Shown one piece after another: positions 1 to 48,243 of a DNA stretch of 48,243 bases. The notes under the pieces were generated by a model. That model made no database searches, was not told the origin of the DNA, and worked only from the letters and a program-made list of their open reading frames with translations. The position numbers and the translations under genes are program-made. The DNA comes from a phage. Location: sequence record PZ150741.1, one strand, 5' to 3'. How positions within the stretch are numbered: the stretch's first letter is position 1; each line of letters opens with the position of its first letter.

Positions 1-35
1 GGAGATGCAACAATACAAACACCAATAAAATTTAC

Positions 36-64
36 TTGCACACTAAGATAGAATATGCTACTAT
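36..64 (+). promoter_or_regulatory. sigma70-like promoter (TTGCAC-17 bp-TACTAT)
   Basis: -35 TTGCAC at 36-41, 17-bp spacer, -10 TACTAT at 59-64; followed by conserved leader AACGAGAGGAGAGG and ATG at 95. Confidence 0.6.
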
Positions 65-94
65 TCATTTACACAAACGAGAGGAGAGGCAGAT

Positions 95-244
95 ATGGTT
101 ACTTTGATGGTTATGGAGTTCGAAAACAGCACCGCAACTTACCGCGAGATGACTATGGCGCAGGCGTATCACCTGGCCTCAAACGGCAACTTCTACAAGG
201 CCCAAATCATCAACGAGTTCGGGGTAATTGACTATGAATTTTAA
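95..244 (+). CDS. hypothetical small protein (49 aa)
   Basis: ATG at 95 preceded by GAGGAGAGG Shine-Dalgarno; stop overlaps next start (ATGA); below the 60-aa ORF-track cutoff. Confidence 0.45.
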   Translation: MVTLMVMEFENSTATYREMTMAQAYHLASNGNFYKAQIINEFGVIDYEF

Positions 245-506
245 CAGTTACACCGTTACCGTTGATTTTGAGGGGCTGGAGCTGCCCCTCCCTAACAACT
301 ACCGGTATATCTCACGCGACTGTAACGGGTTTATTCAGGGGTGGCGGAACAAACCGACAGATACTGAGTTCGGGATGTCTGGCGGGGAAGAGTTGCCGAT
401 CACTTTCGGACATCAGAGTAGCAACGAAGAACTTAAAACCGTGATTCGTAAGTATCGCCGCCGCGGTAACACCGGACTTATAGCAATAACAGGCGCGGTT
501 GAATAA
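234..506 (+). CDS. hypothetical protein (90 aa)
   Basis: Track ORF 228-506; first ATG at 234 with GGGG upstream. Confidence 0.5.
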   Translation: MNFNSYTVTVDFEGLELPLPNNYRYISRDCNGFIQGWRNKPTDTEFGMSGGEELPITFGHQSSNEELKTVIRKYRRRGNTGLIAITGAVE

Positions 507-525
507 ACGAGAGGAGAGACAGAAG

Positions 526-744
526 ATGTTCCTGGAATGCAAATCCTATGAAGGCTATTGGGCGCTGACCAAAAACGACCTGTACCACCTCAAAGAAGAC
601 GGCGACGAGAGCCGCTGCTACATAATAGACGACAATGGCACTGAACTTGATGTCTATTACACCGGGTATGGTCGATGGGCGTTATTGGCGGACGATGACT
701 TTGTGTTCGAAGAATATAACGGAGAGGAGCCAGAAGATGAGTAA
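526..744 (+). CDS. hypothetical protein (72 aa)
   Basis: Track ORF 499-744; ATG at 526 preceded by AACGAGAGGAGAGACAGAAG leader/SD. Confidence 0.5.
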   Translation: MFLECKSYEGYWALTKNDLYHLKEDGDESRCYIIDDNGTELDVYYTGYGRWALLADDDFVFEEYNGEEPEDE

Positions 745-1339
745 CAAAAACGAAGTATTAGAATACCTGATTGACCAGCTACGGCAGCAGCTACCGGTAG
801 TAGATGTAATGGGTGAAATAAAACGGTGGAGCATAGACCGTAGTATTGCTGGCCGAGGTAACTATACCGAAGAGGAAAACGCCGTAATCGATGCTTACAT
901 CGGCCTGGAGCACAACCCATACAAGCAACAGTGCGAAGACCTGGCACATGAGGTGCAGTCACTCAAGAATCAGTTACGCGACGCTTCGGCGCTGGTGGCT
1001 GAGTTACAGAGCGACAACATTAAGAAATCTGAGCACATATCGCACCTGTCGGAACTGGTGGACGAGTTGATGGGGACTATAACGTTAATGAACGGGGACG
1101 TTGAGGCTTACAAAGTTCTACGCAAAGGTGGGTACGTGCCTGAGCAATCCGGTTGCCGTAAGGACGATACCCAGGAATGCGAGCATGAGTGGCGATGTGT
1201 GGTAGTTTTTGGGAATAGACTTGGGACCCCGTATTGCCGTAAATGTGGTGCGGCTAAACCTGAAGAATGCAAGCACGAATGGCAATTTTACGGAGTCGGG
1301 TTTCCTTGTATGTGCCTTAAATGCGGGTTAAAGAAATGA
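738..1339 (+). CDS. hypothetical protein, coiled-coil N-terminus and tandem Cys-rich zinc-ribbon-like C-terminus
   Basis: Track ORF 635-1339; ATG at 738 after GGAGAGGAG SD; C-terminus has two repeats of ECxHEW...CxKCG. Confidence 0.5.
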
Positions 1340-1539
1340 CCAGCATCCTTTTTATCTGGGTACTGTCTGCAGGTCAGATGCATCTGGCGGCATCAGAAAC
1401 GTTTTACTCGATGGAGGCGTGCCGGTCAGCGGCACGCGCCGCAGAGAACGCACACTTCCTGTTTCAGGGCGACAAGCCCAACGATTCAGAGGTACGCGCT
1501 ATCTGCTCACCTAAGCGACTTGGTAAACAGGAGAAGTGA
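1336..1539 (+). CDS. hypothetical small protein with hydrophobic signal-peptide-like N-terminus
   Basis: Track ORF 1321-1539; ATG at 1336 overlaps upstream stop (ATGA); N-terminus MTSILFIWVLSAGQMHLAAS. Confidence 0.4.
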   Translation: MTSILFIWVLSAGQMHLAASETFYSMEACRSAARAAENAHFLFQGDKPNDSEVRAICSPKRLGKQEK

Positions 1540-1541
1540 TT

Positions 1542-1790
1542 ATGGTTAAATTATACGCAGAGCGCGATTTAGAAATGCTCGACATGACTAACAATTACTA
1601 TTCAAGACATGTGATGGCTATGACGGAGGAAGGATTGAACAGTAAATCATCTATCGCTGCTGAGTTGGCGTACCGTGACTGGATTATTGATGAACAGCAA
1701 AAAGAGTTACAGAAATACAAAGACCAGTTCCCGGATTACGTCGAGTGCGCGAACTGTGGGTTGGTCACACATGTGGAAGGGGTAGAGTGA
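1542..1790 (+). CDS. hypothetical protein (82 aa)
   Basis: Track ORF 1536-1790; ATG at 1542 after AGGAGAAG. Confidence 0.45.
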   Translation: MVKLYAERDLEMLDMTNNYYSRHVMAMTEEGLNSKSSIAAELAYRDWIIDEQQKELQKYKDQFPDYVECANCGLVTHVEGVE

Positions 1791-1792
1791 TT

Positions 1793-2011
1793 ATGATATT
1801 CAGAGACCGTAGCAGCTTAAGAACACCGGATTGTCCTACGTTCGAGTTCGAAGACAAAGACGGAGATGTATGCTGTATTCAATTTTATAGAGACGATGAA
1901 GGTGAGTGCGGGCTTGTAGAGTTGCAGGTTTACAGTGAAACCGGTTGTGTTGTATTAAGTGCAGATGATGCGGAATCACTAGCTCGTAAGATACTTGAGG
2001 GCGTTAAATGA
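1793..2011 (+). CDS. hypothetical protein (72 aa)
   Basis: Track ORF 1745-2011; ATG at 1793 after GAAGGGG, follows upstream stop. Confidence 0.45.
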   Translation: MIFRDRSSLRTPDCPTFEFEDKDGDVCCIQFYRDDEGECGLVELQVYSETGCVVLSADDAESLARKILEGVK

Positions 2012-2301
2012 GCCTCGCAACTGACATCCTGAAACGAAGCGGCCTTGCGCCGCTGTCACCGAGAGCGAACACCCAAATATACAAGCGCCGCCGTAATGCG
2101 CTGTACCCCGAGATTCAGGCCAGACGCAAAGCTATCCGCGCCTGTGGATTCCAGAACGGGAAGGCCGTGAATCTCGGTGAGTTTAAAACACAGGAACGCG
2201 CAGCAATCGCTAACCGGTTATTTAATTACTGGAAATCGCTGGGGTACGATGATATTCCGACGAAACCACAGAGACGACAATACATCTGGAGACACAAATA
2301 A
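2008..2301 (+). CDS. hypothetical basic protein (97 aa)
   Basis: Track ORF; start overlaps upstream stop; Arg/Lys-rich. Confidence 0.45.
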   Translation: MSLATDILKRSGLAPLSPRANTQIYKRRRNALYPEIQARRKAIRACGFQNGKAVNLGEFKTQERAAIANRLFNYWKSLGYDDIPTKPQRRQYIWRHK

Positions 2302-2376
2302 ACAACTATTAGGATAATTCCTACCCGTGGTATCCTCCAGTTACTGCATACTTAATACGCACCTGGAGGATTCATC

Positions 2377-2685
2377 TTGGATAAATTTACTGAAACAGTG
2401 ACAGGCTGGCTTCTAGCTGCCGCGCTCGCCGGAGGGGTAATCGGACTACGACAACATAAGTCCGTTATTTCTGGCCCCACCGACGGCTTCTGCTTTATTG
2501 CTACTGGCTTCACTTGCGCCGTATTTGGTGCACCTCTTGCCGCTCAATGGTTCGGAATCACGGGCGACCGTGAAATCGCCGGGTTGGGCTTCATTATCGC
2601 TGTTCTCTGGATGCCTATCTATTCCCGTCTATCCAGTATCGTAGCCGGGGAATACATCGCACGTCGAGGAGGCACAGATGAATGA
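2377..2685 (+). CDS. holin-like membrane protein (about 3 TM segments)
   Basis: TTG start after GGAGGA; three hydrophobic segments; directly upstream of second membrane protein and endolysin. Confidence 0.45.
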   Translation: MDKFTETVTGWLLAAALAGGVIGLRQHKSVISGPTDGFCFIATGFTCAVFGAPLAAQWFGITGDREIAGLGFIIAVLWMPIYSRLSSIVAGEYIARRGGTDE

Positions 2686-2950
2686 GTTATTCTGGTTCGG
2701 CGGTATGCTGGCAATCGGGGGCACATCGCTGTTTAATGTGTACCACCCCAGCGTGGACGATGGGTTATTTGGTAGGGTGCTCTATATCCTGACAGCTATC
2801 GTCTGCGCCGCCGGATGTATCCACTTGCTACAGGGCAGCATGTCCCCGACGCTGCCTGAGACGTTAATCACATTAGTTGCGCTGCGCCAGATTCGCCAGG
2901 CGTGGTTGTCATACGGAGGACATAAGCGTGTCTCGAAATATTTCAGATAA
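2678..2950 (+). CDS. holin/antiholin-like membrane protein (2 TM segments)
   Basis: Two hydrophobic helices; overlaps both neighbours in the lysis cassette. Confidence 0.45.
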   Translation: MNELFWFGGMLAIGGTSLFNVYHPSVDDGLFGRVLYILTAIVCAAGCIHLLQGSMSPTLPETLITLVALRQIRQAWLSYGGHKRVSKYFR

Positions 2951-3416
2951 TGGGTTGCATTTTACCGCTGCGTTCGAGGGATTCCGCGGAACTGCGTATC
3001 GTGCTACGCCGAACGAGAAGTACCTGACTATAGGCTATGGAAGCTACGGTCCGCATGTTAAGGCGGGGCAAACCATCACGCCTGGTCAGGGCTTACTATT
3101 ACTTAATCGCGATATGGCTAAAGCCGTAGTTGCGGTTGATGCGGCGGCGCACCACTCATTGACACAGGCGCAGTTCGATGCAGTGTGCGACCTGGTGTAT
3201 AACGCGGGTGCCGGAGTGATTGCGGCTACTACTGGCACAGGTAAGGCACTGCGTTCTGGCGATATTGCGACACTGCGGGCTAAGCTGGCGCTGTTCATCA
3301 ACCAGAACGGCAAACCGTTACTTGGCTTACGTCGTCGCGTAGCTGGTCGCCTGGCGCTGTTCGACGGTAAACCGTGGCAGGAGGCGGAGGCTATTGGACG
3401 TGCGGTGAAAGGTTGA
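2928..3416 (+). CDS. endolysin, GH24 lysozyme (T4/P22 lysozyme-like)
   Basis: GTG at 2928 after GGAGGA; motifs ISDNG, FEGF...YLTIGYG, QFDAVCDLVYNAG, RRRVAGRLALF resemble P22 gp19/T4 e lysozymes. Confidence 0.85.
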   Translation: MSRNISDNGLHFTAAFEGFRGTAYRATPNEKYLTIGYGSYGPHVKAGQTITPGQGLLLLNRDMAKAVVAVDAAAHHSLTQAQFDAVCDLVYNAGAGVIAATTGTGKALRSGDIATLRAKLALFINQNGKPLLGLRRRVAGRLALFDGKPWQEAEAIGRAVKG

Positions 3417-3480
3417 CACATAAGACTAATCCGACGATACTTAAATCACCTCCTGCTCCATCCCTCTGCTCTCCAGTTTT

Positions 3481-3512
3481 ATCCCGGCCCTGACCCAGCC
3501 GGGATTTTTTTT
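3481..3512 (+). terminator. rho-independent terminator after lysis cassette
   Basis: Hairpin ATCCCGGC-CCTGACCCA-GCCGGGAT followed by T8 run. Confidence 0.8.
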
Positions 3513-3534
3513 ATCTATTTTCTGTAATGAATAG

Positions 3535-3563
3535 TTGACTATTACTCTGACCCCAATTATATT
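3535..3563 (+). promoter_or_regulatory. sigma70-like promoter (TTGACT-17 bp-TATATT)
   Basis: Immediately downstream of terminator; followed by AACGAGAACGGAG leader and ATG at 3598. Confidence 0.55.
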
Positions 3564-3597
3564 TACTTCATCGACAACGAGAACGGAGTAGAGAGAA

Positions 3598-3846
3598 ATG
3601 GGCAACGTATCGACGATAGAAATAACCGAAGAACTCGAAGATAAATGCATCGCATGGACTATGGATAATGACCCGGTTGCTATGTGTAAATTTCCAATGA
3701 AAATCACAGATACCGAAGCATTCAAAGACGCACAACTGATGGCACGCATCGCCGTTAGTAACCTGAGCAATAGCATTCCAGCGGACGCGTTCTGGTTCGC
3801 CGCAATGCAGACACTGAAAGCAGCTTATGCAGGAGAGAAGAAATGA
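3598..3846 (+). CDS. hypothetical protein (82 aa)
   Basis: Track ORF; strong SD GGAGTAGAGAGAA. Confidence 0.5.
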   Translation: MGNVSTIEITEELEDKCIAWTMDNDPVAMCKFPMKITDTEAFKDAQLMARIAVSNLSNSIPADAFWFAAMQTLKAAYAGEKK

Positions 3847-4046
3847 ACAACGTCACCGTTGGCGGCATTTATAAGAGTCGTCACTCTTGGAATGAGGGTG
3901 CAAGATTCATTGTAACCGCGGTTGGGTTGGACCACGTGCTTATCGCGGACCACCCATTGATAAAATTCAATGAATCCTATTTGGAATATTGTGTTGGTAG
4001 AAAGGAGTTCGAGACTAAATTTAAGTTTGCAGGAGAGAAGAAATGA
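3843..4046 (+). CDS. hypothetical protein (67 aa)
   Basis: Track ORF; ATGA overlap; SD AGGAGAGAAG. Confidence 0.5.
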   Translation: MNNVTVGGIYKSRHSWNEGARFIVTAVGLDHVLIADHPLIKFNESYLEYCVGRKEFETKFKFAGEKK

Positions 4047-4201
4047 GTGAACAAGGTCAAGTAAGCCAGCCACTACGAGTAGGCCGTAAAGTCAGTCGCA
4101 CCCCGTTCCCGACACGCGAGGAACTGATGAAACGTAACAGTTTCCCGGGGCCGGACAAGAACAAGTATCTCAATCGTATGTGGGGAGAGCGTAAAGAATG
4201 A
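4043..4201 (+). CDS. hypothetical small protein (52 aa)
   Basis: ATG at 4043 after AGGAGAGAAG; ATGA overlap with next gene; below track cutoff. Confidence 0.4.
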   Translation: MSEQGQVSQPLRVGRKVSRTPFPTREELMKRNSFPGPDKNKYLNRMWGERKE

Positions 4202-4368
4202 AAAAGTTAATTGCAGATGTTGAACTCGGTGATGTTATTCGTATTGATGACGACTACGGCGGCTACGACGTAGTGGTGAAGCACATCGAGTGGGATTCTA
4301 CGTTGCCATTTGTCACGATTAACCGTGAAATAATGTTCACTAAAACTGATTGGGTAGAGGTTCGATAA
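4198..4368 (+). CDS. hypothetical small protein (56 aa)
   Basis: ATG at 4198 after GGGGAGAG; below track cutoff. Confidence 0.4.
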   Translation: MKKLIADVELGDVIRIDDDYGGYDVVVKHIEWDSTLPFVTINREIMFTKTDWVEVR

Positions 4369-4541
4369 TGACTAACAACGAATACGAGAAACTTAGCGTA
4401 GAAGCGGCGACCGGTGAATCTGAAATAGCGTGGATTGACGCCAACATCGAGCACTACCTACGGCAAGTAGACATCCTTATGGAACGCCGCCGTGAACTGA
4501 TTAACCGCTTCAACCTGAACAAAGGTGACGCCAATGCCTAA
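4368..4541 (+). CDS. hypothetical protein (57 aa)
   Basis: Track ORF 4350-4541; ATG at 4368 overlaps upstream TAA. Confidence 0.45.
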   Translation: MTNNEYEKLSVEAATGESEIAWIDANIEHYLRQVDILMERRRELINRFNLNKGDANA

Positions 4542-4719
4542 AATCACAATTGCATCACTAGAGCGCCGTATTCTGGTGCTCGAGTCAGAGAAACAGACGT
4601 TAGGCGGTCAACTGTCGATTAACGGCGAGTTTCAACTGGAGGCGTTTAAGATGCTACTTGAACGCATGAAGGACGAGGAAGATTGGGCGCATTCCTTGCA
4701 AGACCTCTGGCAATACTAA
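4534..4719 (+). CDS. hypothetical coiled-coil protein (61 aa)
   Basis: Track ORF 4525-4719; ATG at 4534 after AAAGGTGA. Confidence 0.45.
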   Translation: MPKITIASLERRILVLESEKQTLGGQLSINGEFQLEAFKMLLERMKDEEDWAHSLQDLWQY

Positions 4720-4721
4720 AC

Positions 4722-4904
4722 ATGAAATCGCCTGAGCCAGTAGTTATCGATGGCGTCCTGTGGAAACCTTACTCGGTTAACCACATCGACGCCGACGGGA
4801 AGAAGTTCAGCTTCTACATTTTTGCAATTAGCCGTGAGCACGCCGCTTGTGTGGTCGATGATATACGAGAAACGGCGTGGCTCGGTGATGAGATAGTGGG
4901 GTGA
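4722..4904 (+). CDS. hypothetical protein (60 aa)
   Basis: Track ORF 4683-4904; ATG at 4722 just after upstream stop; TTG at 4683 is an alternative start. Confidence 0.4.
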   Translation: MKSPEPVVIDGVLWKPYSVNHIDADGKKFSFYIFAISREHAACVVDDIRETAWLGDEIVG

Positions 4905-4908
4905 GAGT

Positions 4909-4992
4909 ATGAATCTCGAGGTGGTTATCGGTCTGGTAGGTCTTAGCTACTTCATCGGGTTGTTGGTTGGCTTTCTGTGGGGTAGATACTAA
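4909..4992 (+). CDS. possible 27-aa single-TM peptide
   Basis: ATG at 4909, hydrophobic MNLEVVIGLVGLSYFIGLLVGFLWGRY, stop overlaps next start. Confidence 0.25.
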   Translation: MNLEVVIGLVGLSYFIGLLVGFLWGRY

Positions 4993-5273
4993 TGGCGCGT
5001 ACTGTTTCCGCGAGATTCACTGATATCGAATCCGCTATAGAAGAAGCCGTTTATTGTAGATTTTGCAACCCCTCCGCAGTACATAACTACGGAGTTATTG
5101 TTAAATACGGCAAGTTTGAGGTTAGAAGGGTGCGCGCCGACCGTCCGTACGAGTTTTTATGGACAACAGAAAGCCTCATCCCGCGGTGCCACATTTACAC
5201 AAGCGGTGCACATACGATTTTTGTAGACCTTAACAAGAAAGATATTACCGTCACTAAAGGAGAGACAAATTGA
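4992..5273 (+). CDS. hypothetical protein (93 aa)
   Basis: Track ORF; SD GGGGTAG upstream. Confidence 0.45.
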   Translation: MARTVSARFTDIESAIEEAVYCRFCNPSAVHNYGVIVKYGKFEVRRVRADRPYEFLWTTESLIPRCHIYTSGAHTIFVDLNKKDITVTKGETN

Positions 5274-5506
5274 TTACCAGCATCCCTGAACTGATTGAAG
5301 AGTACGGAAGTATGTCGGAGACCTGCCGACAAACCGGTATCTGCGAAATGACGATTGCCAAGTACAGCAAAGACGTGAACTGCGAGCGCCACGTAATCTA
5401 TAACAACCGTCTGATGACGCACGTTAAGACAAGCCCGGTGTTATTCACGCGCCGGGGTATCACTAAAACTGAGCAACGTATTACCAGAGGGGAGAGGGGG
5501 GAATGA
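5270..5506 (+). CDS. hypothetical protein, possible HTH
   Basis: Track ORF with non-ATG start; segment SETCRQTGICEMTIAKYS resembles helix-turn-helix; start uncertain. Confidence 0.35.
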   Translation: MITSIPELIEEYGSMSETCRQTGICEMTIAKYSKDVNCERHVIYNNRLMTHVKTSPVLFTRRGITKTEQRITRGERGE

Positions 5507-5609
5507 GACTGTTAATCGTCCCTAACGCCTGGGTTATTGCCGTAGCTAACGACCATTACGGCGGCGATGGTAAAAGAGCCTCACGACACGGCCTATACAA
5601 CTGATGCAA

Positions 5610-5630
5610 GCCCTCTACGGAGGGTTTTCT
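5610..5630 (+). terminator. weak terminator-like hairpin at early/late boundary
   Basis: CCCTC-TACG-GAGGG followed by TTTTCT. Confidence 0.35.
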
Positions 5631-5724
5631 GTACATCCCGCCCAATCCCCTTATATAATCCCTTTAGACGCGTAGGGCGCGTCTGGTGCGCTCTGATGGT
5701 CAGACGCATATGCAAGGGGATTCT

Positions 5725-6270
5725 ATGAAGCTGAAACTCAAGCAGCCATCGCCAGAGGTGGTGCAAGCTGCACATGAAGAAGCTGTTAGCGCAAACCGTC
5801 GCCGTAAACGACCGCGCGGTAAACAGAGCCTTTATCAATCATCCCGTAATTCCGCCGCGTTGTGGGACCCGGACTATTGCGACGCGTTAATCGAGTTCTT
5901 CGACCGCACGTCGTGGGAACTTGTGCCTACGTCTAAGGGCGACGAACGCCCGCTGATTCAGGATAAGCCACCATCACTGGCCCGCTTCGCCTTACACATC
6001 GGCGTCACTATACCGATTATTAAGCTGTGGTTGCGCGAGATTCCCGCATTTGCAGAAGCTTGGGAGACAGCACAGGCGCTGGAGGAGGCGTACTTCACTG
6101 AGACAGGCGCAGCAGGCATCTCTGCTACGTTCGCTGCCGCTAAGCTGGGCCTCAGCAAAGAGAAACCGGTGGAATCTACCGAAGAAACGGCACCGACCGA
6201 GATTGTTTTCAGTGTTGCAGAGCCTGTAGGTAAGATAGTAACAACGAACATGGGCGAGGCAGAGGAATGA
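5725..6270 (+). CDS. terS: terminase small subunit (putative)
   Basis: Immediately upstream of and ATGA-overlapping terL; ATG at 5725 after AAGGGGA; basic N-terminus and HTH-like segment. Confidence 0.55.
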   Translation: MKLKLKQPSPEVVQAAHEEAVSANRRRKRPRGKQSLYQSSRNSAALWDPDYCDALIEFFDRTSWELVPTSKGDERPLIQDKPPSLARFALHIGVTIPIIKLWLREIPAFAEAWETAQALEEAYFTETGAAGISATFAAAKLGLSKEKPVESTEETAPTEIVFSVAEPVGKIVTTNMGEAEE

Positions 6271-7517
6271 GTATTCAGCTATCCGCACCACAGGCTTTGT
6301 TTCTGAACTGCGATAACAAATACAAAGCCTACGTCGGCGGCTTCGGCAGCGGCAAGACATTTGTTGGCTGCCTTGACCTGCTTACGTTCATGCTCAAACA
6401 TCCCGGTACGCGCCTCGGATACTTTGGCCCTACATATCCGGCTATCCGTGACATCTTCTACCCGACATTCGAGGAAGCGGCTAACCTGCTTGGCCTTGAT
6501 GTGCTGGTTAAATCCGGCGACAAAGAAGTCGTGGTTACTCGCGGTAAGACGGTGCTCGGGACAGTTATCTGCCGTTCTATGGATAACCCGGGGTCTATCG
6601 TTGGTTTCAAAATCGCTGCTGCAGTCGTCGACGAGTTGGACGTACTGAGCCGCGAGAAGGCCGAACTGGCGTGGAACAAAATCGTAGCCCGTATGCGACT
6701 TGTTATTCCTGGCGTAATTAACCACATCTCCGTCACCACGACACCGGAAGGGTTCAAGTTCGTCTTCGCCAAGTTCAAAGATAACCCGACGCCGAGCTAC
6801 TCAATGGTGCAGGCATCAACTCACGAGAACGCGCGATTCCTGCCGTCTGACTACATTAGCTCGCTGACCGAGACTTACCCGGCGCAACTGATTAACGCGT
6901 ACCTGAATGGTGAGTTCGTCAACCTGACCTCCGGCAGCGTCTACTACGCCTACGACCGCCGTAAGCACCGCAGCAAAGAGACAATTCAACCTGGCGACAC
7001 GCTGTACATCGGGCAGGACTTCAACGTTACGAAGAACGCCAGCGCCGTTTATGTGCAGCGTAAAGACGGCTGGCACGCGGTAGCAGAGCTGAAAGGTCTG
7101 TTCGATACGCCGGATACTGTGCGCGTAATTACTGAGAAGTGGAAGTCACATGGGCACCGCATCGTCGTTTACCCTGACGCCAGCGGCAAGAACCGCAAGA
7201 CCAACTCGGCATCAATCTCTGATATCGCGTTACTCCAGCAGGCCGGGTTCGATGTTCGCGCTAAATCTGCCAACCCCCCGGTTAAAGACCGTGTTTTAGC
7301 CGTGAATACCGCACTGGAAAAAGGTAAGCTGTGGGTTAACGACCACTTATGCCCCGAGATAGCGAAGACGCTGGAGCAGCAGGCGTACGACGATAACGGC
7401 GAGCCGGCTAAAGACGGCGTTATTGACCATATGGCGGATGCTCTAGGCTATCCTGTAGTTTACGAGATGCCGGTGGTTAAACCAGTAATCAATACCCCAG
7501 TTCGTTTCGCACTTTAA
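6267..7517 (+). CDS. terL: terminase large subunit
   Basis: Walker A GGFGSGKT, Walker B VVDELD, acidic nuclease-domain residues in C-terminal half; 416 aa. Confidence 0.9.
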   Translation: MSIQLSAPQALFLNCDNKYKAYVGGFGSGKTFVGCLDLLTFMLKHPGTRLGYFGPTYPAIRDIFYPTFEEAANLLGLDVLVKSGDKEVVVTRGKTVLGTVICRSMDNPGSIVGFKIAAAVVDELDVLSREKAELAWNKIVARMRLVIPGVINHISVTTTPEGFKFVFAKFKDNPTPSYSMVQASTHENARFLPSDYISSLTETYPAQLINAYLNGEFVNLTSGSVYYAYDRRKHRSKETIQPGDTLYIGQDFNVTKNASAVYVQRKDGWHAVAELKGLFDTPDTVRVITEKWKSHGHRIVVYPDASGKNRKTNSASISDIALLQQAGFDVRAKSANPPVKDRVLAVNTALEKGKLWVNDHLCPEIAKTLEQQAYDDNGEPAKDGVIDHMADALGYPVVYEMPVVKPVINTPVRFAL

Positions 7518-9021: not shown

Positions 9022-9044
9022 AGCCCCGAAAGGGGCTTTCTTAT
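9022..9044 (+). terminator. hairpin AGCCCC-GAAA-GGGGCT plus T-rich tail
   Basis: Perfect 6-bp GC stem with GAAA tetraloop after portal stop. Confidence 0.5.
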
Positions 9045-10586: not shown

Positions 10587-10614
10587 AAAAGGCCCCTTTC
10601 GGGGCCTTAGTTTT
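10587..10614. terminator. bidirectional terminator AAGGCCCC-TTTC-GGGGCCTT
   Basis: 8-bp GC stem flanked by A-run and T-run; lies between convergent genes. Confidence 0.8.
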
Positions 10615-11165: not shown

Positions 11166-11194
11166 GCGCCCCGCTTTATGGCGGGGCTTTACTT
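11166..11194 (+). terminator. terminator/attenuator-like hairpin GCCCCGC-TTTATG-GCGGGGC plus TTT
   Basis: 7-bp GC stem with short U tract about 20 nt upstream of spanin start. Confidence 0.45.
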
Positions 11195-13558: not shown

Positions 13559-13586
13559 GAGAGGGACTTCGGTCCCTCTTTTCATT
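13559..13586 (+). terminator. hairpin GAGGGAC-TTCG-GTCCCTC plus T-run
   Basis: After major capsid gene; likely partial terminator for transcript abundance. Confidence 0.7.
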
Positions 13587-29195: not shown

Positions 29196-29224
29196 ACTAA
29201 GGCCCCTTTCGGGGCCTTTTCTCT
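29196..29224. terminator. bidirectional terminator AAGGCCCC-TTTC-GGGGCCTT
   Basis: Third copy of the same hairpin; separates convergent late and replication blocks. Confidence 0.8.
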
Positions 29225-43119: not shown

Positions 43120-43263
43120 ATGAGAGAAGCATTTGAACGGTGGGCCGTCGTCGAGGGGCTGCCGGTTAACAAGGGTTCAAAGAAAGAGTACCTGAACGTC
43201 AAGACGCGTCTCGCGTGGCGGGCGTGGAAAGCCGGGGTGTTGTCTGTGATGAATAAGGGGTGA
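43120..43263 (+). CDS. hypothetical small protein (47 aa)
   Basis: ATG at 43120; Trp/Arg-rich; below track cutoff. Confidence 0.3.
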   Translation: MREAFERWAVVEGLPVNKGSKKEYLNVKTRLAWRAWKAGVLSVMNKG

Positions 43264-43530: not shown

Positions 43531-43611
43531 TTTTTGTTCTATTTCACGAAACGCAACAATTGAAGCTACTATTGCAGGAGATGCAACAATACAAACACCA
43601 ATAAAATTTAC

Positions 43612-43640
43612 TTGCACACTAAGATAGAATATGCTACTAT
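43612..43640 (+). promoter_or_regulatory. sigma70-like promoter, copy of 36-64
   Basis: Duplicate within repeat. Confidence 0.6.
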
Positions 43641-43670
43641 TCATTTACACAAACGAGAGGAGAGGCAGAT

Positions 43671-43820
43671 ATGGTTACTTTGATGGTTATGGAGTTCGAA
43701 AACAGCACCGCAACTTACCGCGAGATGACTATGGCGCAGGCGTATCACCTGGCCTCAAACGGCAACTTCTACAAGGCCCAAATCATCAACGAGTTCGGGG
43801 TAATTGACTATGAATTTTAA
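43671..43820 (+). CDS. hypothetical small protein (copy of 95-244)
   Basis: Duplicate within repeat. Confidence 0.45.
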   Translation: MVTLMVMEFENSTATYREMTMAQAYHLASNGNFYKAQIINEFGVIDYEF

Positions 43821-44082
43821 CAGTTACACCGTTACCGTTGATTTTGAGGGGCTGGAGCTGCCCCTCCCTAACAACTACCGGTATATCTCACGCGACTGTA
43901 ACGGGTTTATTCAGGGGTGGCGGAACAAACCGACAGATACTGAGTTCGGGATGTCTGGCGGGGAAGAGTTGCCGATCACTTTCGGACATCAGAGTAGCAA
44001 CGAAGAACTTAAAACCGTGATTCGTAAGTATCGCCGCCGCGGTAACACCGGACTTATAGCAATAACAGGCGCGGTTGAATAA
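43810..44082 (+). CDS. hypothetical protein (copy of 234-506)
   Basis: Duplicate within repeat. Confidence 0.5.
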   Translation: MNFNSYTVTVDFEGLELPLPNNYRYISRDCNGFIQGWRNKPTDTEFGMSGGEELPITFGHQSSNEELKTVIRKYRRRGNTGLIAITGAVE

Positions 44083-44101
44083 ACGAGAGGAGAGACAGAA
44101 G

Positions 44102-44320
44102 ATGTTCCTGGAATGCAAATCCTATGAAGGCTATTGGGCGCTGACCAAAAACGACCTGTACCACCTCAAAGAAGACGGCGACGAGAGCCGCTGCTACATA
44201 ATAGACGACAATGGCACTGAACTTGATGTCTATTACACCGGGTATGGTCGATGGGCGTTATTGGCGGACGATGACTTTGTGTTCGAAGAATATAACGGAG
44301 AGGAGCCAGAAGATGAGTAA
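44102..44320 (+). CDS. hypothetical protein (copy of 526-744)
   Basis: Duplicate within repeat. Confidence 0.5.
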   Translation: MFLECKSYEGYWALTKNDLYHLKEDGDESRCYIIDDNGTELDVYYTGYGRWALLADDDFVFEEYNGEEPEDE

Positions 44321-44915
44321 CAAAAACGAAGTATTAGAATACCTGATTGACCAGCTACGGCAGCAGCTACCGGTAGTAGATGTAATGGGTGAAATAAAAC
44401 GGTGGAGCATAGACCGTAGTATTGCTGGCCGAGGTAACTATACCGAAGAGGAAAACGCCGTAATCGATGCTTACATCGGCCTGGAGCACAACCCATACAA
44501 GCAACAGTGCGAAGACCTGGCACATGAGGTGCAGTCACTCAAGAATCAGTTACGCGACGCTTCGGCGCTGGTGGCTGAGTTACAGAGCGACAACATTAAG
44601 AAATCTGAGCACATATCGCACCTGTCGGAACTGGTGGACGAGTTGATGGGGACTATAACGTTAATGAACGGGGACGTTGAGGCTTACAAAGTTCTACGCA
44701 AAGGTGGGTACGTGCCTGAGCAATCCGGTTGCCGTAAGGACGATACCCAGGAATGCGAGCATGAGTGGCGATGTGTGGTAGTTTTTGGGAATAGACTTGG
44801 GACCCCGTATTGCCGTAAATGTGGTGCGGCTAAACCTGAAGAATGCAAGCACGAATGGCAATTTTACGGAGTCGGGTTTCCTTGTATGTGCCTTAAATGC
44901 GGGTTAAAGAAATGA
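44314..44915 (+). CDS. zinc-ribbon-like protein (copy of 738-1339)
   Basis: Duplicate within repeat. Confidence 0.5.
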
Positions 44916-45115
44916 CCAGCATCCTTTTTATCTGGGTACTGTCTGCAGGTCAGATGCATCTGGCGGCATCAGAAACGTTTTACTCGATGGAGGCGTGCCG
45001 GTCAGCGGCACGCGCCGCAGAGAACGCACACTTCCTGTTTCAGGGCGACAAGCCCAACGATTCAGAGGTACGCGCTATCTGCTCACCTAAGCGACTTGGT
45101 AAACAGGAGAAGTGA
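44912..45115 (+). CDS. hypothetical small protein (copy of 1336-1539)
   Basis: Duplicate within repeat. Confidence 0.4.
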   Translation: MTSILFIWVLSAGQMHLAASETFYSMEACRSAARAAENAHFLFQGDKPNDSEVRAICSPKRLGKQEK

Positions 45116-45117
45116 TT

Positions 45118-45366
45118 ATGGTTAAATTATACGCAGAGCGCGATTTAGAAATGCTCGACATGACTAACAATTACTATTCAAGACATGTGATGGCTATGAC
45201 GGAGGAAGGATTGAACAGTAAATCATCTATCGCTGCTGAGTTGGCGTACCGTGACTGGATTATTGATGAACAGCAAAAAGAGTTACAGAAATACAAAGAC
45301 CAGTTCCCGGATTACGTCGAGTGCGCGAACTGTGGGTTGGTCACACATGTGGAAGGGGTAGAGTGA
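45118..45366 (+). CDS. hypothetical protein (copy of 1542-1790)
   Basis: Duplicate within repeat. Confidence 0.45.
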   Translation: MVKLYAERDLEMLDMTNNYYSRHVMAMTEEGLNSKSSIAAELAYRDWIIDEQQKELQKYKDQFPDYVECANCGLVTHVEGVE

Positions 45367-45368
45367 TT

Positions 45369-45587
45369 ATGATATTCAGAGACCGTAGCAGCTTAAGAAC
45401 ACCGGATTGTCCTACGTTCGAGTTCGAAGACAAAGACGGAGATGTATGCTGTATTCAATTTTATAGAGACGATGAAGGTGAGTGCGGGCTTGTAGAGTTG
45501 CAGGTTTACAGTGAAACCGGTTGTGTTGTATTAAGTGCAGATGATGCGGAATCACTAGCTCGTAAGATACTTGAGGGCGTTAAATGA
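45369..45587 (+). CDS. hypothetical protein (copy of 1793-2011)
   Basis: Duplicate within repeat. Confidence 0.45.
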   Translation: MIFRDRSSLRTPDCPTFEFEDKDGDVCCIQFYRDDEGECGLVELQVYSETGCVVLSADDAESLARKILEGVK

Positions 45588-45877
45588 GCCTCGCAACTGA
45601 CATCCTGAAACGAAGCGGCCTTGCGCCGCTGTCACCGAGAGCGAACACCCAAATATACAAGCGCCGCCGTAATGCGCTGTACCCCGAGATTCAGGCCAGA
45701 CGCAAAGCTATCCGCGCCTGTGGATTCCAGAACGGGAAGGCCGTGAATCTCGGTGAGTTTAAAACACAGGAACGCGCAGCAATCGCTAACCGGTTATTTA
45801 ATTACTGGAAATCGCTGGGGTACGATGATATTCCGACGAAACCACAGAGACGACAATACATCTGGAGACACAAATAA
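45584..45877 (+). CDS. hypothetical basic protein (copy of 2008-2301)
   Basis: Duplicate within repeat. Confidence 0.45.
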   Translation: MSLATDILKRSGLAPLSPRANTQIYKRRRNALYPEIQARRKAIRACGFQNGKAVNLGEFKTQERAAIANRLFNYWKSLGYDDIPTKPQRRQYIWRHK

Positions 45878-45952
45878 ACAACTATTAGGATAATTCCTAC
45901 CCGTGGTATCCTCCAGTTACTGCATACTTAATACGCACCTGGAGGATTCATC

Positions 45953-46261
45953 TTGGATAAATTTACTGAAACAGTGACAGGCTGGCTTCTAGCTGCCGCG
46001 CTCGCCGGAGGGGTAATCGGACTACGACAACATAAGTCCGTTATTTCTGGCCCCACCGACGGCTTCTGCTTTATTGCTACTGGCTTCACTTGCGCCGTAT
46101 TTGGTGCACCTCTTGCCGCTCAATGGTTCGGAATCACGGGCGACCGTGAAATCGCCGGGTTGGGCTTCATTATCGCTGTTCTCTGGATGCCTATCTATTC
46201 CCGTCTATCCAGTATCGTAGCCGGGGAATACATCGCACGTCGAGGAGGCACAGATGAATGA
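45953..46261 (+). CDS. holin-like membrane protein (copy of 2377-2685)
   Basis: Duplicate within repeat. Confidence 0.45.
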   Translation: MDKFTETVTGWLLAAALAGGVIGLRQHKSVISGPTDGFCFIATGFTCAVFGAPLAAQWFGITGDREIAGLGFIIAVLWMPIYSRLSSIVAGEYIARRGGTDE

Positions 46262-46526
46262 GTTATTCTGGTTCGGCGGTATGCTGGCAATCGGGGGCAC
46301 ATCGCTGTTTAATGTGTACCACCCCAGCGTGGACGATGGGTTATTTGGTAGGGTGCTCTATATCCTGACAGCTATCGTCTGCGCCGCCGGATGTATCCAC
46401 TTGCTACAGGGCAGCATGTCCCCGACGCTGCCTGAGACGTTAATCACATTAGTTGCGCTGCGCCAGATTCGCCAGGCGTGGTTGTCATACGGAGGACATA
46501 AGCGTGTCTCGAAATATTTCAGATAA
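46254..46526 (+). CDS. holin/antiholin-like membrane protein (copy of 2678-2950)
   Basis: Duplicate within repeat. Confidence 0.45.
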   Translation: MNELFWFGGMLAIGGTSLFNVYHPSVDDGLFGRVLYILTAIVCAAGCIHLLQGSMSPTLPETLITLVALRQIRQAWLSYGGHKRVSKYFR

Positions 46527-46990
46527 TGGGTTGCATTTTACCGCTGCGTTCGAGGGATTCCGGAACTGCGTATCGTGCTACGCCGAACGAGAAGTACCTG
46601 ACTATAGGCTATGGAAGCTACGGTCCGCATGTTAAGGCGGGGCAAACCATCACGCCTGGTCAGGGCTTACTATTACTTAATCGCGATATGGCTAAAGCCG
46701 TAGTTGCGGTTGATGCGGCGGCGCACCACTCATTGACACAGGCGCAGTTCGATGCAGTGTGCGACCTGGTGTATAACGCGGGTGCCGGAGTGATTGCGGC
46801 TACTACTGGCACAGGTAAGGCACTGCGTTCTGGCGATATTGCGACACTGCGGGCTAAGCTGGCGCTGTTCATCAACCAGAACGGCAAACCGTTACTTGGC
46901 TTACGTCGTCGCGTAGCTGGTCGCCTGGCGCTGTTCGACGGTAAACCGTGGCAGGAGGCGGAGGCTATTGGACGTGCGGTGAAAGGTTGA
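46504..46990 (+). pseudogene. endolysin copy disrupted by 2-bp deletion (frameshift)
   Basis: Relative to 2928-3416, CGCG becomes CG at 46561; reading frame breaks after FEGFR; track splits it into 46453-46635 and 46526-46990. Confidence 0.8.
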
Positions 46991-47054
46991 CACATAAGAC
47001 TAATCCGACGATACTTAAATCACCTCCTGCTCCATCCCTCTGCTCTCCAGTTTT

Positions 47055-47085
47055 ATCCCGGCCCTGACCCAGCCGGGATTTTTTT
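47055..47085 (+). terminator. terminator copy with T7 instead of T8
   Basis: Same hairpin as 3481-3512, one T shorter. Confidence 0.8.
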
Positions 47086-47107
47086 ATCTATTTTCTGTAA
47101 TGAATAG

Positions 47108-47136
47108 TTGACTATTACTCTGACCCCAATTATATT
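47108..47136 (+). promoter_or_regulatory. sigma70-like promoter, copy of 3535-3563
   Basis: Duplicate within repeat. Confidence 0.55.
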
Positions 47137-47170
47137 TACTTCATCGACAACGAGAACGGAGTAGAGAGAA

Positions 47171-47419
47171 ATGGGCAACGTATCGACGATAGAAATAACC
47201 GAAGAACTCGAAGATAAATGCATCGCATGGACTATGGATAATGACCCGGTTGCTATGTGTAAATTTCCAATGAAAATCACAGATACCGAAGCATTCAAAG
47301 ACGCACAACTGATGGCACGCATCGCCGTTAGTAACCTGAGCAATAGCATTCCAGCGGACGCGTTCTGGTTCGCCGCAATGCAGACACTGAAAGCAGCTTA
47401 TGCAGGAGAGAAGAAATGA
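47171..47419 (+). CDS. hypothetical protein (copy of 3598-3846)
   Basis: Duplicate within repeat. Confidence 0.5.
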   Translation: MGNVSTIEITEELEDKCIAWTMDNDPVAMCKFPMKITDTEAFKDAQLMARIAVSNLSNSIPADAFWFAAMQTLKAAYAGEKK

Positions 47420-47619
47420 ACAACGTCACCGTTGGCGGCATTTATAAGAGTCGTCACTCTTGGAATGAGGGTGCAAGATTCATTGTAACCGCGGTTGGGT
47501 TGGACCACGTGCTTATCGCGGACCACCCATTGATAAAATTCAATGAATCCTATTTGGAATATTGTGTTGGTAGAAAGGAGTTCGAGACTAAATTTAAGTT
47601 TGCAGGAGAGAAGAAATGA
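47416..47619 (+). CDS. hypothetical protein (copy of 3843-4046)
   Basis: Duplicate within repeat. Confidence 0.5.
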   Translation: MNNVTVGGIYKSRHSWNEGARFIVTAVGLDHVLIADHPLIKFNESYLEYCVGRKEFETKFKFAGEKK

Positions 47620-47774
47620 GTGAACAAGGTCAAGTAAGCCAGCCACTACGAGTAGGCCGTAAAGTCAGTCGCACCCCGTTCCCGACACGCGAGGAACTGA
47701 TGAAACGTAACAGTTTCCCGGGGCCGGACAAGAACAAGTATCTCAATCGTATGTGGGGAGAGCGTAAAGAATGA
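47616..47774 (+). CDS. hypothetical small protein (copy of 4043-4201)
   Basis: Duplicate within repeat. Confidence 0.4.
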   Translation: MSEQGQVSQPLRVGRKVSRTPFPTREELMKRNSFPGPDKNKYLNRMWGERKE

Positions 47775-47941
47775 AAAAGTTAATTGCAGATGTTGAACTC
47801 GGTGATGTTATTCGTATTGATGACGACTACGGCGGCTACGACGTAGTGGTGAAGCACATCGAGTGGGATTCTACGTTGCCATTTGTCACGATTAACCGTG
47901 AAATAATGTTCACTAAAACTGATTGGGTAGAGGTTCGATAA
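47771..47941 (+). CDS. hypothetical small protein (copy of 4198-4368)
   Basis: Duplicate within repeat. Confidence 0.4.
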   Translation: MKKLIADVELGDVIRIDDDYGGYDVVVKHIEWDSTLPFVTINREIMFTKTDWVEVR

Positions 47942-48114
47942 TGACTAACAACGAATACGAGAAACTTAGCGTAGAAGCGGCGACCGGTGAATCTGAAATA
48001 GCGTGGATTGACGCCAACATCGAGCACTACCTACGGCAAGTAGACATCCTTATGGAACGCCGCCGTGAACTGATTAACCGCTTCAACCTGAACAAAGGTG
48101 ACGCCAATGCCTAA
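47941..48114 (+). CDS. hypothetical protein (copy of 4368-4541)
   Basis: Duplicate within repeat. Confidence 0.45.
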   Translation: MTNNEYEKLSVEAATGESEIAWIDANIEHYLRQVDILMERRRELINRFNLNKGDANA

Positions 48115-48243
48115 AATCACAATTGCATCACTAGAGCGCCGTATTCTGGTGCTCGAGTCAGAGAAACAGACGTTAGGCGGTCAACTGTCGATTAACGGCG
48201 AGTTTCAACTGGAGGCGTTTAAGATGCTACTTGAACGCATGAA
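48107..48243 (+). CDS. hypothetical protein, 3'-truncated by window end (copy of 4534-4719)
   Basis: Duplicate within repeat; ORF runs off the window. Confidence 0.4.
   Translation, partial: MPKITIASLERRILVLESEKQTLGGQLSINGEFQLEAFKMLLERM

Follow-up and report, generated by a model that had tools for sequence, protein, structure and literature searches.

What does the perfect 7-bp palindrome next to a TATAAT box, just ahead of the terminase gene terS, do for the phage that carries it? A sequence-only reading had offered two answers, given the position at the start of the packaging genes: a late promoter with an operator, or part of a packaging-recognition region. We analyzed the whole stretch of DNA (48,243 nt, hereafter the window) together with related phage genomes. 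With about even confidence, we conclude that the palindrome is HP1, the first of two RNA stem-loops in a cis-acting 5′ leader of the mRNA for terS and the other late (packaging and structural) genes.

The window represents the genome of a Kagunavirus (K1G-like, Guernseyvirinae), and the region of interest is 88–94% identical to K1G-like phages, with weaker matches to Jerseyvirus and Cornellvirus genomes. Bases 1–4670 recur at the window end (43574–48243; 99.94% identity, 0 mismatches, two indels). The contig therefore over-runs a circularly permuted sequence, by ~10.7%, and the true genome size is about 43.57 kb. The end repeat stems either from overlap in assembling the circularly permuted genome or from terminal redundancy within a molecule-length read. 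In DNA order, the locus consists of a terminator-like hairpin, a sigma-70-type promoter, HP1, one base, a second hairpin (HP2), an AU-rich linker, a Shine-Dalgarno (SD) sequence and the terS ATG:

5610–5629, plus strand: terminator-like hairpin, stem (G)CCCTC/GAGGG(T), loop TACG, then the T-tract TTTTCT
5630–5635, plus strand: −35-like hexamer TGTACA from a promoter scan, 18 nt upstream of the −10
5652–5730, plus strand: full conserved element, found by covariance model R1 (100.5 bits, E 4e-22; the sole R1 match in the window)
5654–5659, plus strand: −10 hexamer TATAAT, T-A-[T/C]-A-A-T in 36/36 distinct variants and in five clades
5666–5684, plus strand: HP1, the palindrome AGACGCG (5666–5672), loop TAGGG (5673–5677), CGCGTCT (5678–5684)
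5685, plus strand: unpaired linker base between HP1 and HP2 in the single-sequence and consensus folds
5686–5709, plus strand: RNA hairpin HP2, stem of 9–10 bp, bulged C (5691), loop AUGGU
5714–5720, plus strand: SD sequence AAGGGGA of terS, 4 nt before the ATG
5725–6270, plus strand: terS, terminase small subunit, 181 codons (phrog_3064 'terminase', E 3e-73)

The upstream boundary of the locus resembles an intrinsic terminator, with a GC-rich stem and a U-tract. The hairpin at 5610–5629 is formed in the minimum-energy fold, is found in nearly all relatives, and keeps its stem through a compensatory change (CTC/GAG to CGC/GCG) in the Jersey and Cornell types. A terminator scan flagged the copy in Cornellvirus L052 and did not flag those in the window and in Jerseyvirus L040; the window copy is without one C of the 3′ arm carried by relatives. 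This terminator-like hairpin would close the upstream block of small ORFs and a NinH-like gene. The latter (5270–5506, directly upstream of the hairpin; Pfam PF06322 at E 6e-6, below the curated cut-off; phrog_268) encodes a probable small DNA-binding protein. As in the terminator–promoter junctions that insulate phage and bacterial operons, the terminator-like T-tract abuts the −35 of the next promoter, and the sequence upstream is mosaic among relatives. We found no unusual difference from such junctions, and this part of the locus appears ordinary. At the downstream end, the terS stop overlaps the ATG (6267) of a 416-codon ORF, which we take to be the large terminase subunit gene, terL, following its annotation in relatives.

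The promoter, TGTACA-18-TATAAT, scores 10/12 in the promoter scan and is the best site within 4500–7000, with a weak −35 (4/6 match to consensus). Equivalent sites occur in the Jersey type (L040, TGTACA-18-TACAAT) and the Cornell type (L052, TTGCCT-17-TATAAT). A −10 of TATAAT or TACAAT with a −35-like hexamer at 17–18 bp is kept in at least three genera; the hexamer is unclear in L067–L069, and neither the −35/−10 spacer nor the sequence before the terminator is constrained among relatives. The site has the features of a sigma-70 promoter: its −10 is near TATAAT and includes the A of position 2 and the T of position 6, and a −35-like hexamer lies within the 16–18 bp range. The promoter proposed by the sequence-only reading thus holds as a prediction. 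Counting from the last T of the −10, HP1 begins at 6–8 nt in all clades, and the A and G that open it hardly vary. Transcription by E. coli-type polymerase usually starts at this distance from the −10. We infer a transcription start at about 5666, which would place HP1 at the extreme 5′ end of the mRNA. In the literature searched, no mapped promoter, transcription start or pac site was found for these phages, and the one Kagunavirus RNA-seq paper found gives no start sites.

The single-sequence fold of 5666–5740 (−25.9 kcal/mol) consists of HP1, one unpaired base and HP2, with HP1 forming a 7-bp RNA stem (8 bp including U5673–G5677) and the loop UAGGG. Its z-score of −1.57 shows that the fold energy is not exceptional, and it is not decisive alone. 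Palindromes of this size are also common in the window, where 41 perfect 7-bp stems with 3–8 nt loops compare with 18 ± 6 in first-order Markov simulations, a count that includes long terminator stems several times each. The exact HP1 pattern with up to three mismatches gave 5 matches in the window vs 3.1 expected, and the half-site CAGACGCG with up to one mismatch was not enriched there (56 vs 52 expected). A lone 7-bp palindrome is not beyond chance; HP1 is taken as real because of its conservation and covariation in relatives. The coordinates that the sequence-only reading gave for the TATAAT box and the palindrome are exact, and its naming of the downstream gene as terS agrees with the phrog_3064 match. 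The terS SD and ATG that it placed after the palindrome are present but lie 40 nt further on, with HP2, which it had not listed, in between.

Two other regulatory uses of the hairpins were considered and rejected. An attenuator-type switch, in which GCGTCTG (5679–5685) would pair alternatively with CAGACGC (5701–5707), is not supported, as that pairing is not kept in the Jersey and Cornell types. Sites of the CsrA type were dismissed by sequence inspection only, the loops being without GGA.

We examined conservation in 44 IMG/VR relatives aligned over the region. The conserved block is sharply bounded, running from 5610 on, and the sequence upstream is unrelated or mosaic. In GenBank, 199 phage records match 5596–5790. 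The module was found in Kagunavirus, Jerseyvirus, Cornellvirus and two further clades, L063–L069 (reached via a TerS profile) and L181/L203 (via a pattern scan), in which both hairpins are kept and the stem sequences differ. In Cornellvirus, the only blastn match nearby is 5652–5722, at 76% identity, and TerS is only 27–29% identical to that of the window phage, a putative helix-turn-helix (HTH) segment included. The leader element is thus better conserved than the TerS protein encoded after it. A purine-rich SD lies 4–8 nt before the ATG in every clade despite its changing sequence (AAGGGGA, GAGAGGA, CAGGAGA, AAGAGGU).

The pattern of substitutions indicates which molecule is under selection. 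Across 36 distinct sequences aligned to R1, a covariance model built from 30 variants, 96.5% of pair cells are paired and 7/16 pairs show two-sided changes; fitting the structural alignment to the model biases these counts upward, yet both the controls with one arm slid by 1–3 columns (17–53% paired) and RNAalifold, which independently predicts the same two hairpins, agree with them. The covariation score and the percentage of paired cells were each matched by 0/500 shuffles, controls that overstate significance because the sequences are related. In HP1, 98% of cells are paired. Its two-sided changes are CG to UA (3 variants) and GC to UG (7), and one-sided changes to G-U add up to 20, comprising AU to GU (5), CG to UG (11) and GC to GU (4). 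HP1 is a perfect DNA palindrome, fully Watson-Crick, in 17/36 variants, and is fully paired in 31/36 when G-U is allowed. In HP2, 5/9 pairs have changed on both sides: C5693–G5703 is replaced by A-U in 16 variants and by G-C in 3, and U5694–A5702 by C-G in 3.

G-U pairs in the transcript are A-C mismatches on the other strand, and the pattern therefore points to selection on the plus-strand transcript, not on DNA symmetry. That HP1 and HP2 are plus-strand RNA structures kept by compensatory and G-U changes is, by this comparison of sequences, well supported. The element and its pairing persist across clades, but the perfect DNA palindrome is found in those 17 variants only. Pairs that covary on the transcribed strand within a non-coding leader are the hallmarks of a structured cis-regulatory 5′ UTR. 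Outside the stems, the loops are nearly invariant, both containing xGG (AGG or UGG in HP1, UGG in HP2); the HP2 loop AUGGU, within GAUGGUC, is invariant in 35/36 variants. The HP1 3′ arm is nearly invariant as well.

Is the leader non-coding? Many GenBank relatives (e.g. EF2-1) annotate terS from a GTG at 5686, inside the HP2 stem, a start for which the HP1 loop would have to serve as the SD. We rejected this start because it is not conserved among relatives. The frame from 5686 has an in-frame stop in L054, is shifted in L064 and L065, and is without a start codon in L067–L069, and synonymous-type substitutions begin only after the ATG at 5725. Together, the broken upstream frames, the substitution pattern and the conserved SD place the terS start at 5725, leaving 5666–5724 as a leader of about 59 nt; the GTG 5686 annotation is probably wrong. 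A G/A polymorphism at 5686 retains GTG or ATG and equally retains a G-U or A-U pair with U5709. Separately, a 10-codon upstream ORF (uORF; MVRRICKGIL, 5696–5728) begins at the invariant AUG of the HP2 loop, and its UGA overlaps the terS AUG. The versions in the other clades have 5–12 codons; they stop immediately 5′ of the SD or reach into the terS AUG. We did not adopt this uORF as functional: it is always present, but it is without an SD, and the AU-rich linker accounts for where it stops.

The element is single-copy, confined to virulent phages of the Guernseyvirinae type, and uncatalogued. Rfam returned no match at the gathering threshold in the window and noise only (E > 5) in 5550–5800, and no description of the element was found in the literature. 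R1 found no true matches upstream of more distant TerS relatives (L070–L101), nor in bacterial genomes apart from one contaminant contig. A 19-base pattern run against the genomes of 185,579 bacterial and archaeal species hit four stretches, one of which scored with R1. This stretch is L260, 4433–4512 on an 18,987-bp contig of a Bacteroidota assembly (Taishania pollutisoli scaffold22, NZ_JACVEL010000022.1). The contig is 100% identical to the Salmonella jerseyviruses vB_SalS_JNS02 and Psm140 over the 2 kb tested, and is almost certainly phage contamination of the assembly.

The two-hairpin leader is therefore a newly described element of a familiar sort, absent from Rfam. The Guernseyvirinae (Jersey-, Kaguna- and Cornellviruses) are among the commonest isolates for biocontrol of Salmonella and E. 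coli and for synthetic-phage work. With our analysis, the start of their packaging/late operon has a single covarying RNA element with sharp limits, on which start-site mapping and mutagenesis can be focused, and a widespread annotation of the terS start codon is corrected (ATG 5725 instead of GTG 5686).

By analogy with known leaders, the role of this one is most likely to control the stability or translation of the terS/late mRNA. Leaders of the ompA type guard mRNAs against 5′-end-dependent decay and set their translation; the E. coli ompA 5′ UTR has a hairpin at its extreme 5′ end, a second hairpin, and a single-stranded ribosome-binding segment. We hypothesize that host RNA polymerase starts at ~5666, so that few if any unpaired bases precede HP1 at the very 5′ end of the mRNA, and that from then on the leader acts in cis. 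It would protect the late mRNA from 5′-end-dependent decay, as an ompA-type 5′ stabiliser, and would set the level of terS translation; terL would follow by coupling to terS, since the terS stop overlaps the terL start.

The leader resembles ompA in its second hairpin and in the AU-rich single-stranded segment carrying the SD, and would do so as well in a hairpin placed at the predicted +1 with 0–2 unpaired bases. As in ompA, the leader seems to be constitutively stable; we found no alternative fold that is conserved. The two differ in length, the ompA leader having 133 nt vs about 59 nt here. A pure stabiliser of the ompA type also needs no sequence invariance, whereas the phage loops and 3′ arm are invariant across genera. 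Because a generic stabiliser hairpin requires neither invariant loops nor an invariant 3′ arm, the proposed role in stability or translation may be incomplete or wrong. Such invariance across phages with diverged proteins suggests that the leader is bound by a partner that is itself conserved; a host factor is more probable than a diverged phage protein.

The same two hairpins could instead serve as the scaffold of a filter against read-through, an explanation that we consider unlikely. In transcripts started upstream, 5644–5665 would pair with the SD/ATG region (5714–5727) and form a three-way junction around HP1 and HP2 that blocks terS translation, whereas transcripts from the terS promoter would be without this pyrimidine segment and hence be translated. 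One part of the segment can be listed as a tentative feature:

5657–5665, plus strand: tentative anti-SD segment AAUCCCUUU, complementary to 5714–5722 and present only in read-through transcripts

The minimum-energy fold of 5600–5740 is this three-way junction, with the SD sequestered (z = −3.05). However, the long-transcript fold buries the SD via an upstream near-copy, AAUCCCCUU (5644–5652), and not via the 5657–5665 segment. The duplex between 5657–5665 and the SD (−10.3 kcal/mol) is matched or beaten by 1.3% of genomic windows; it thus beats 98.7% of them in the window phage, as do its counterparts 99.5% in Jersey L040 and 97.5% in L065. The signal reaches significance in the K1G, Jersey and L065 clades but not in Cornellvirus (p 0.27), L068 (0.22), L041 (0.08) or L067 (0.08). 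Cognate segments pair best with the SDs of the Jersey type, L065 and L067/L068, yet the upstream segment of L181 and L203 has its partner beside HP2 and not in the SD. A change of the −10 from TATAAT to TACAAT accompanies a change from GGAUUA/C to GGAUUG between SD and AUG; most K1G-type variants, however, are mismatched at this covarying position, and any C/U-rich stretch will pair with an SD. Within the window, the near-copies AATCCCCTTA (5644–5653) and AATCCCTTTA (5657–5666) flank the −10, and both are complementary to the SD region AAGGGGATT (5714–5722).

A further candidate partner of the leader is RNA polymerase itself. The two hairpins, occupying the first ~45 nt of the late transcript, would bind the polymerase that has just made them and render it resistant to terminators in the ~23-kb late region. 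We regard it as quite unlikely that HP1–HP2 is such a compact put-like RNA, acting on RNA polymerase or otherwise binding a host factor. The architecture and position are those of HK022 putL, an antiterminator of early transcripts whose two stem-loops begin at +3 of a sigma-70 transcript (PMC9378689); the phage hairpins would likewise begin at about +1 to +3, at a transcript start that is predicted. Like putL and putR, they form a cis RNA of two adjacent stem-loops at the head of a sigma-70 transcript; in both cases the phage is an enterobacterial siphophage and a long operon with terminators follows. That the sequence stays invariant among phages whose proteins differ greatly is consistent with the host polymerase as partner. 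None of the ten proteins tested (terS and nine upstream ORFs) matched a Q-like or other antiterminator family. The structural-gene region has strong terminator-like hairpins on the plus strand:

9022–9037, plus strand: terminator-like hairpin
11168–11187, plus strand: terminator-like hairpin
13559–13580, plus strand: terminator-like hairpin
20400–20423, plus strand: terminator-like hairpin

To these are added bidirectional hairpins (10589, 17900). Since neither 11168 nor 13559 is followed by a promoter-like site, late transcription has to pass through both, though the internal terminators may be no more than leaky attenuators. The resemblance to put ends with the general layout: there is no similarity in sequence or structure to putL/putR, R1 finds nothing in HK022 (E ≤ 10), and the phage element is the smaller of the two, at about 44 nt vs ~70 nt; its stems are short and regular, whereas those of put are long and bulged, and put also has a triplex (PMC9378689). 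HK022 is a lambdoid phage with put on its early operon; here the phage is virulent, the operon is late, and the single-copy element lies directly before the SD, where a translational role fits too. If the put-like reading were true, put-type RNA antitermination would extend beyond HK022-like temperate phages, and a large subfamily of virulent enterobacterial siphophages would possess a protein-independent antitermination switch for late genes. As an observation on the same region, the terminator-like hairpins follow the portal gene and the probable capsid gene, among others.

Antitermination of the lambda type is not supported. The nut sites of lambda and P22 (boxA + boxB) share with the leader a GC-rich hairpin with a 5-nt loop near the operon start, and the K1G-type string CGCUCUGA matches boxA, which is CGCUCUUA, at 7/8 positions. 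This boxA-like string lies inside the HP2 stem and occurs in the K1G type only, not being conserved in Jersey, Cornell or the other clades. The order of hairpin then boxA-like string is the reverse of that in nut, the HP1-type loops (UAGGG, CAGGG, CUGGG) are not GNRA-like as in boxB, and no N-like protein was identified.

Packaging recognition at the DNA level, the second proposal of the sequence-only reading, appears very improbable. TerS would recognize the conserved stretch that opens its gene as a pac site and start headful packaging there. The position at the start of the packaging genes is apt, as SPP1 pacL is located likewise, and the strong conservation extends to bases that are unpaired. 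The substitution pattern, however, is that of RNA pairing on one strand. Moreover, a pac site should covary with the DNA-binding domain of TerS, and clades that share a ~76% identical element have TerS proteins only 27–29% identical, HTH segment included; this divergence makes a common DNA target unlikely. Headful packaging of the P1 type, probably from a pac site, has been reported for jerseyviruses (PMC10783031), but no pac coordinates are published in the literature searched, and PhageTerm found no obvious termini in Kagunavirus fBC-Eco01 (PMC9825357). Several GenBank records start inside the region (fBC-Eco01, Shashou, Bas70/73); we judged these starts to be annotation conventions rather than mapped ends, fBC-Eco01 being the genome without PhageTerm termini.

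The operator proposed by the same reading, at which a dimeric repressor or activator would bind the palindrome just downstream of the −10 and time late transcription, has in its favour a classical operator position, with the perfect 7-bp inverted repeat spanning +1 to +19 of the predicted promoter, and a NinH-like DNA-binding protein encoded immediately upstream, but is the least credible explanation of all, since two-fold DNA symmetry is lost in 19/36 variants while RNA pairing is kept, G-U type changes leave A-C mismatches on the other strand, the adjacent HP2 shows the same RNA-type covariation, and the genome holds no further copies of the site, unlike the sites of a regulator.

Elsewhere in the window, a 10-bp perfect palindrome, AGACGCGTCT (43202–43211), consists of HP1 arms without the loop. 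It lies inside a small early-region ORF, and we judged it to be a chance occurrence and not a further copy of HP1. A 20-nt perfect hairpin, AAGGCCCC-TTTC-GGGGCCTT, is present three times (10589–10608, 17900–17919 and 29199–29218). The three copies end plus-strand gene blocks, two of them adjoin minus-strand inserts, and all are flanked by T-runs on either side, which gives them the appearance of bidirectional terminators.
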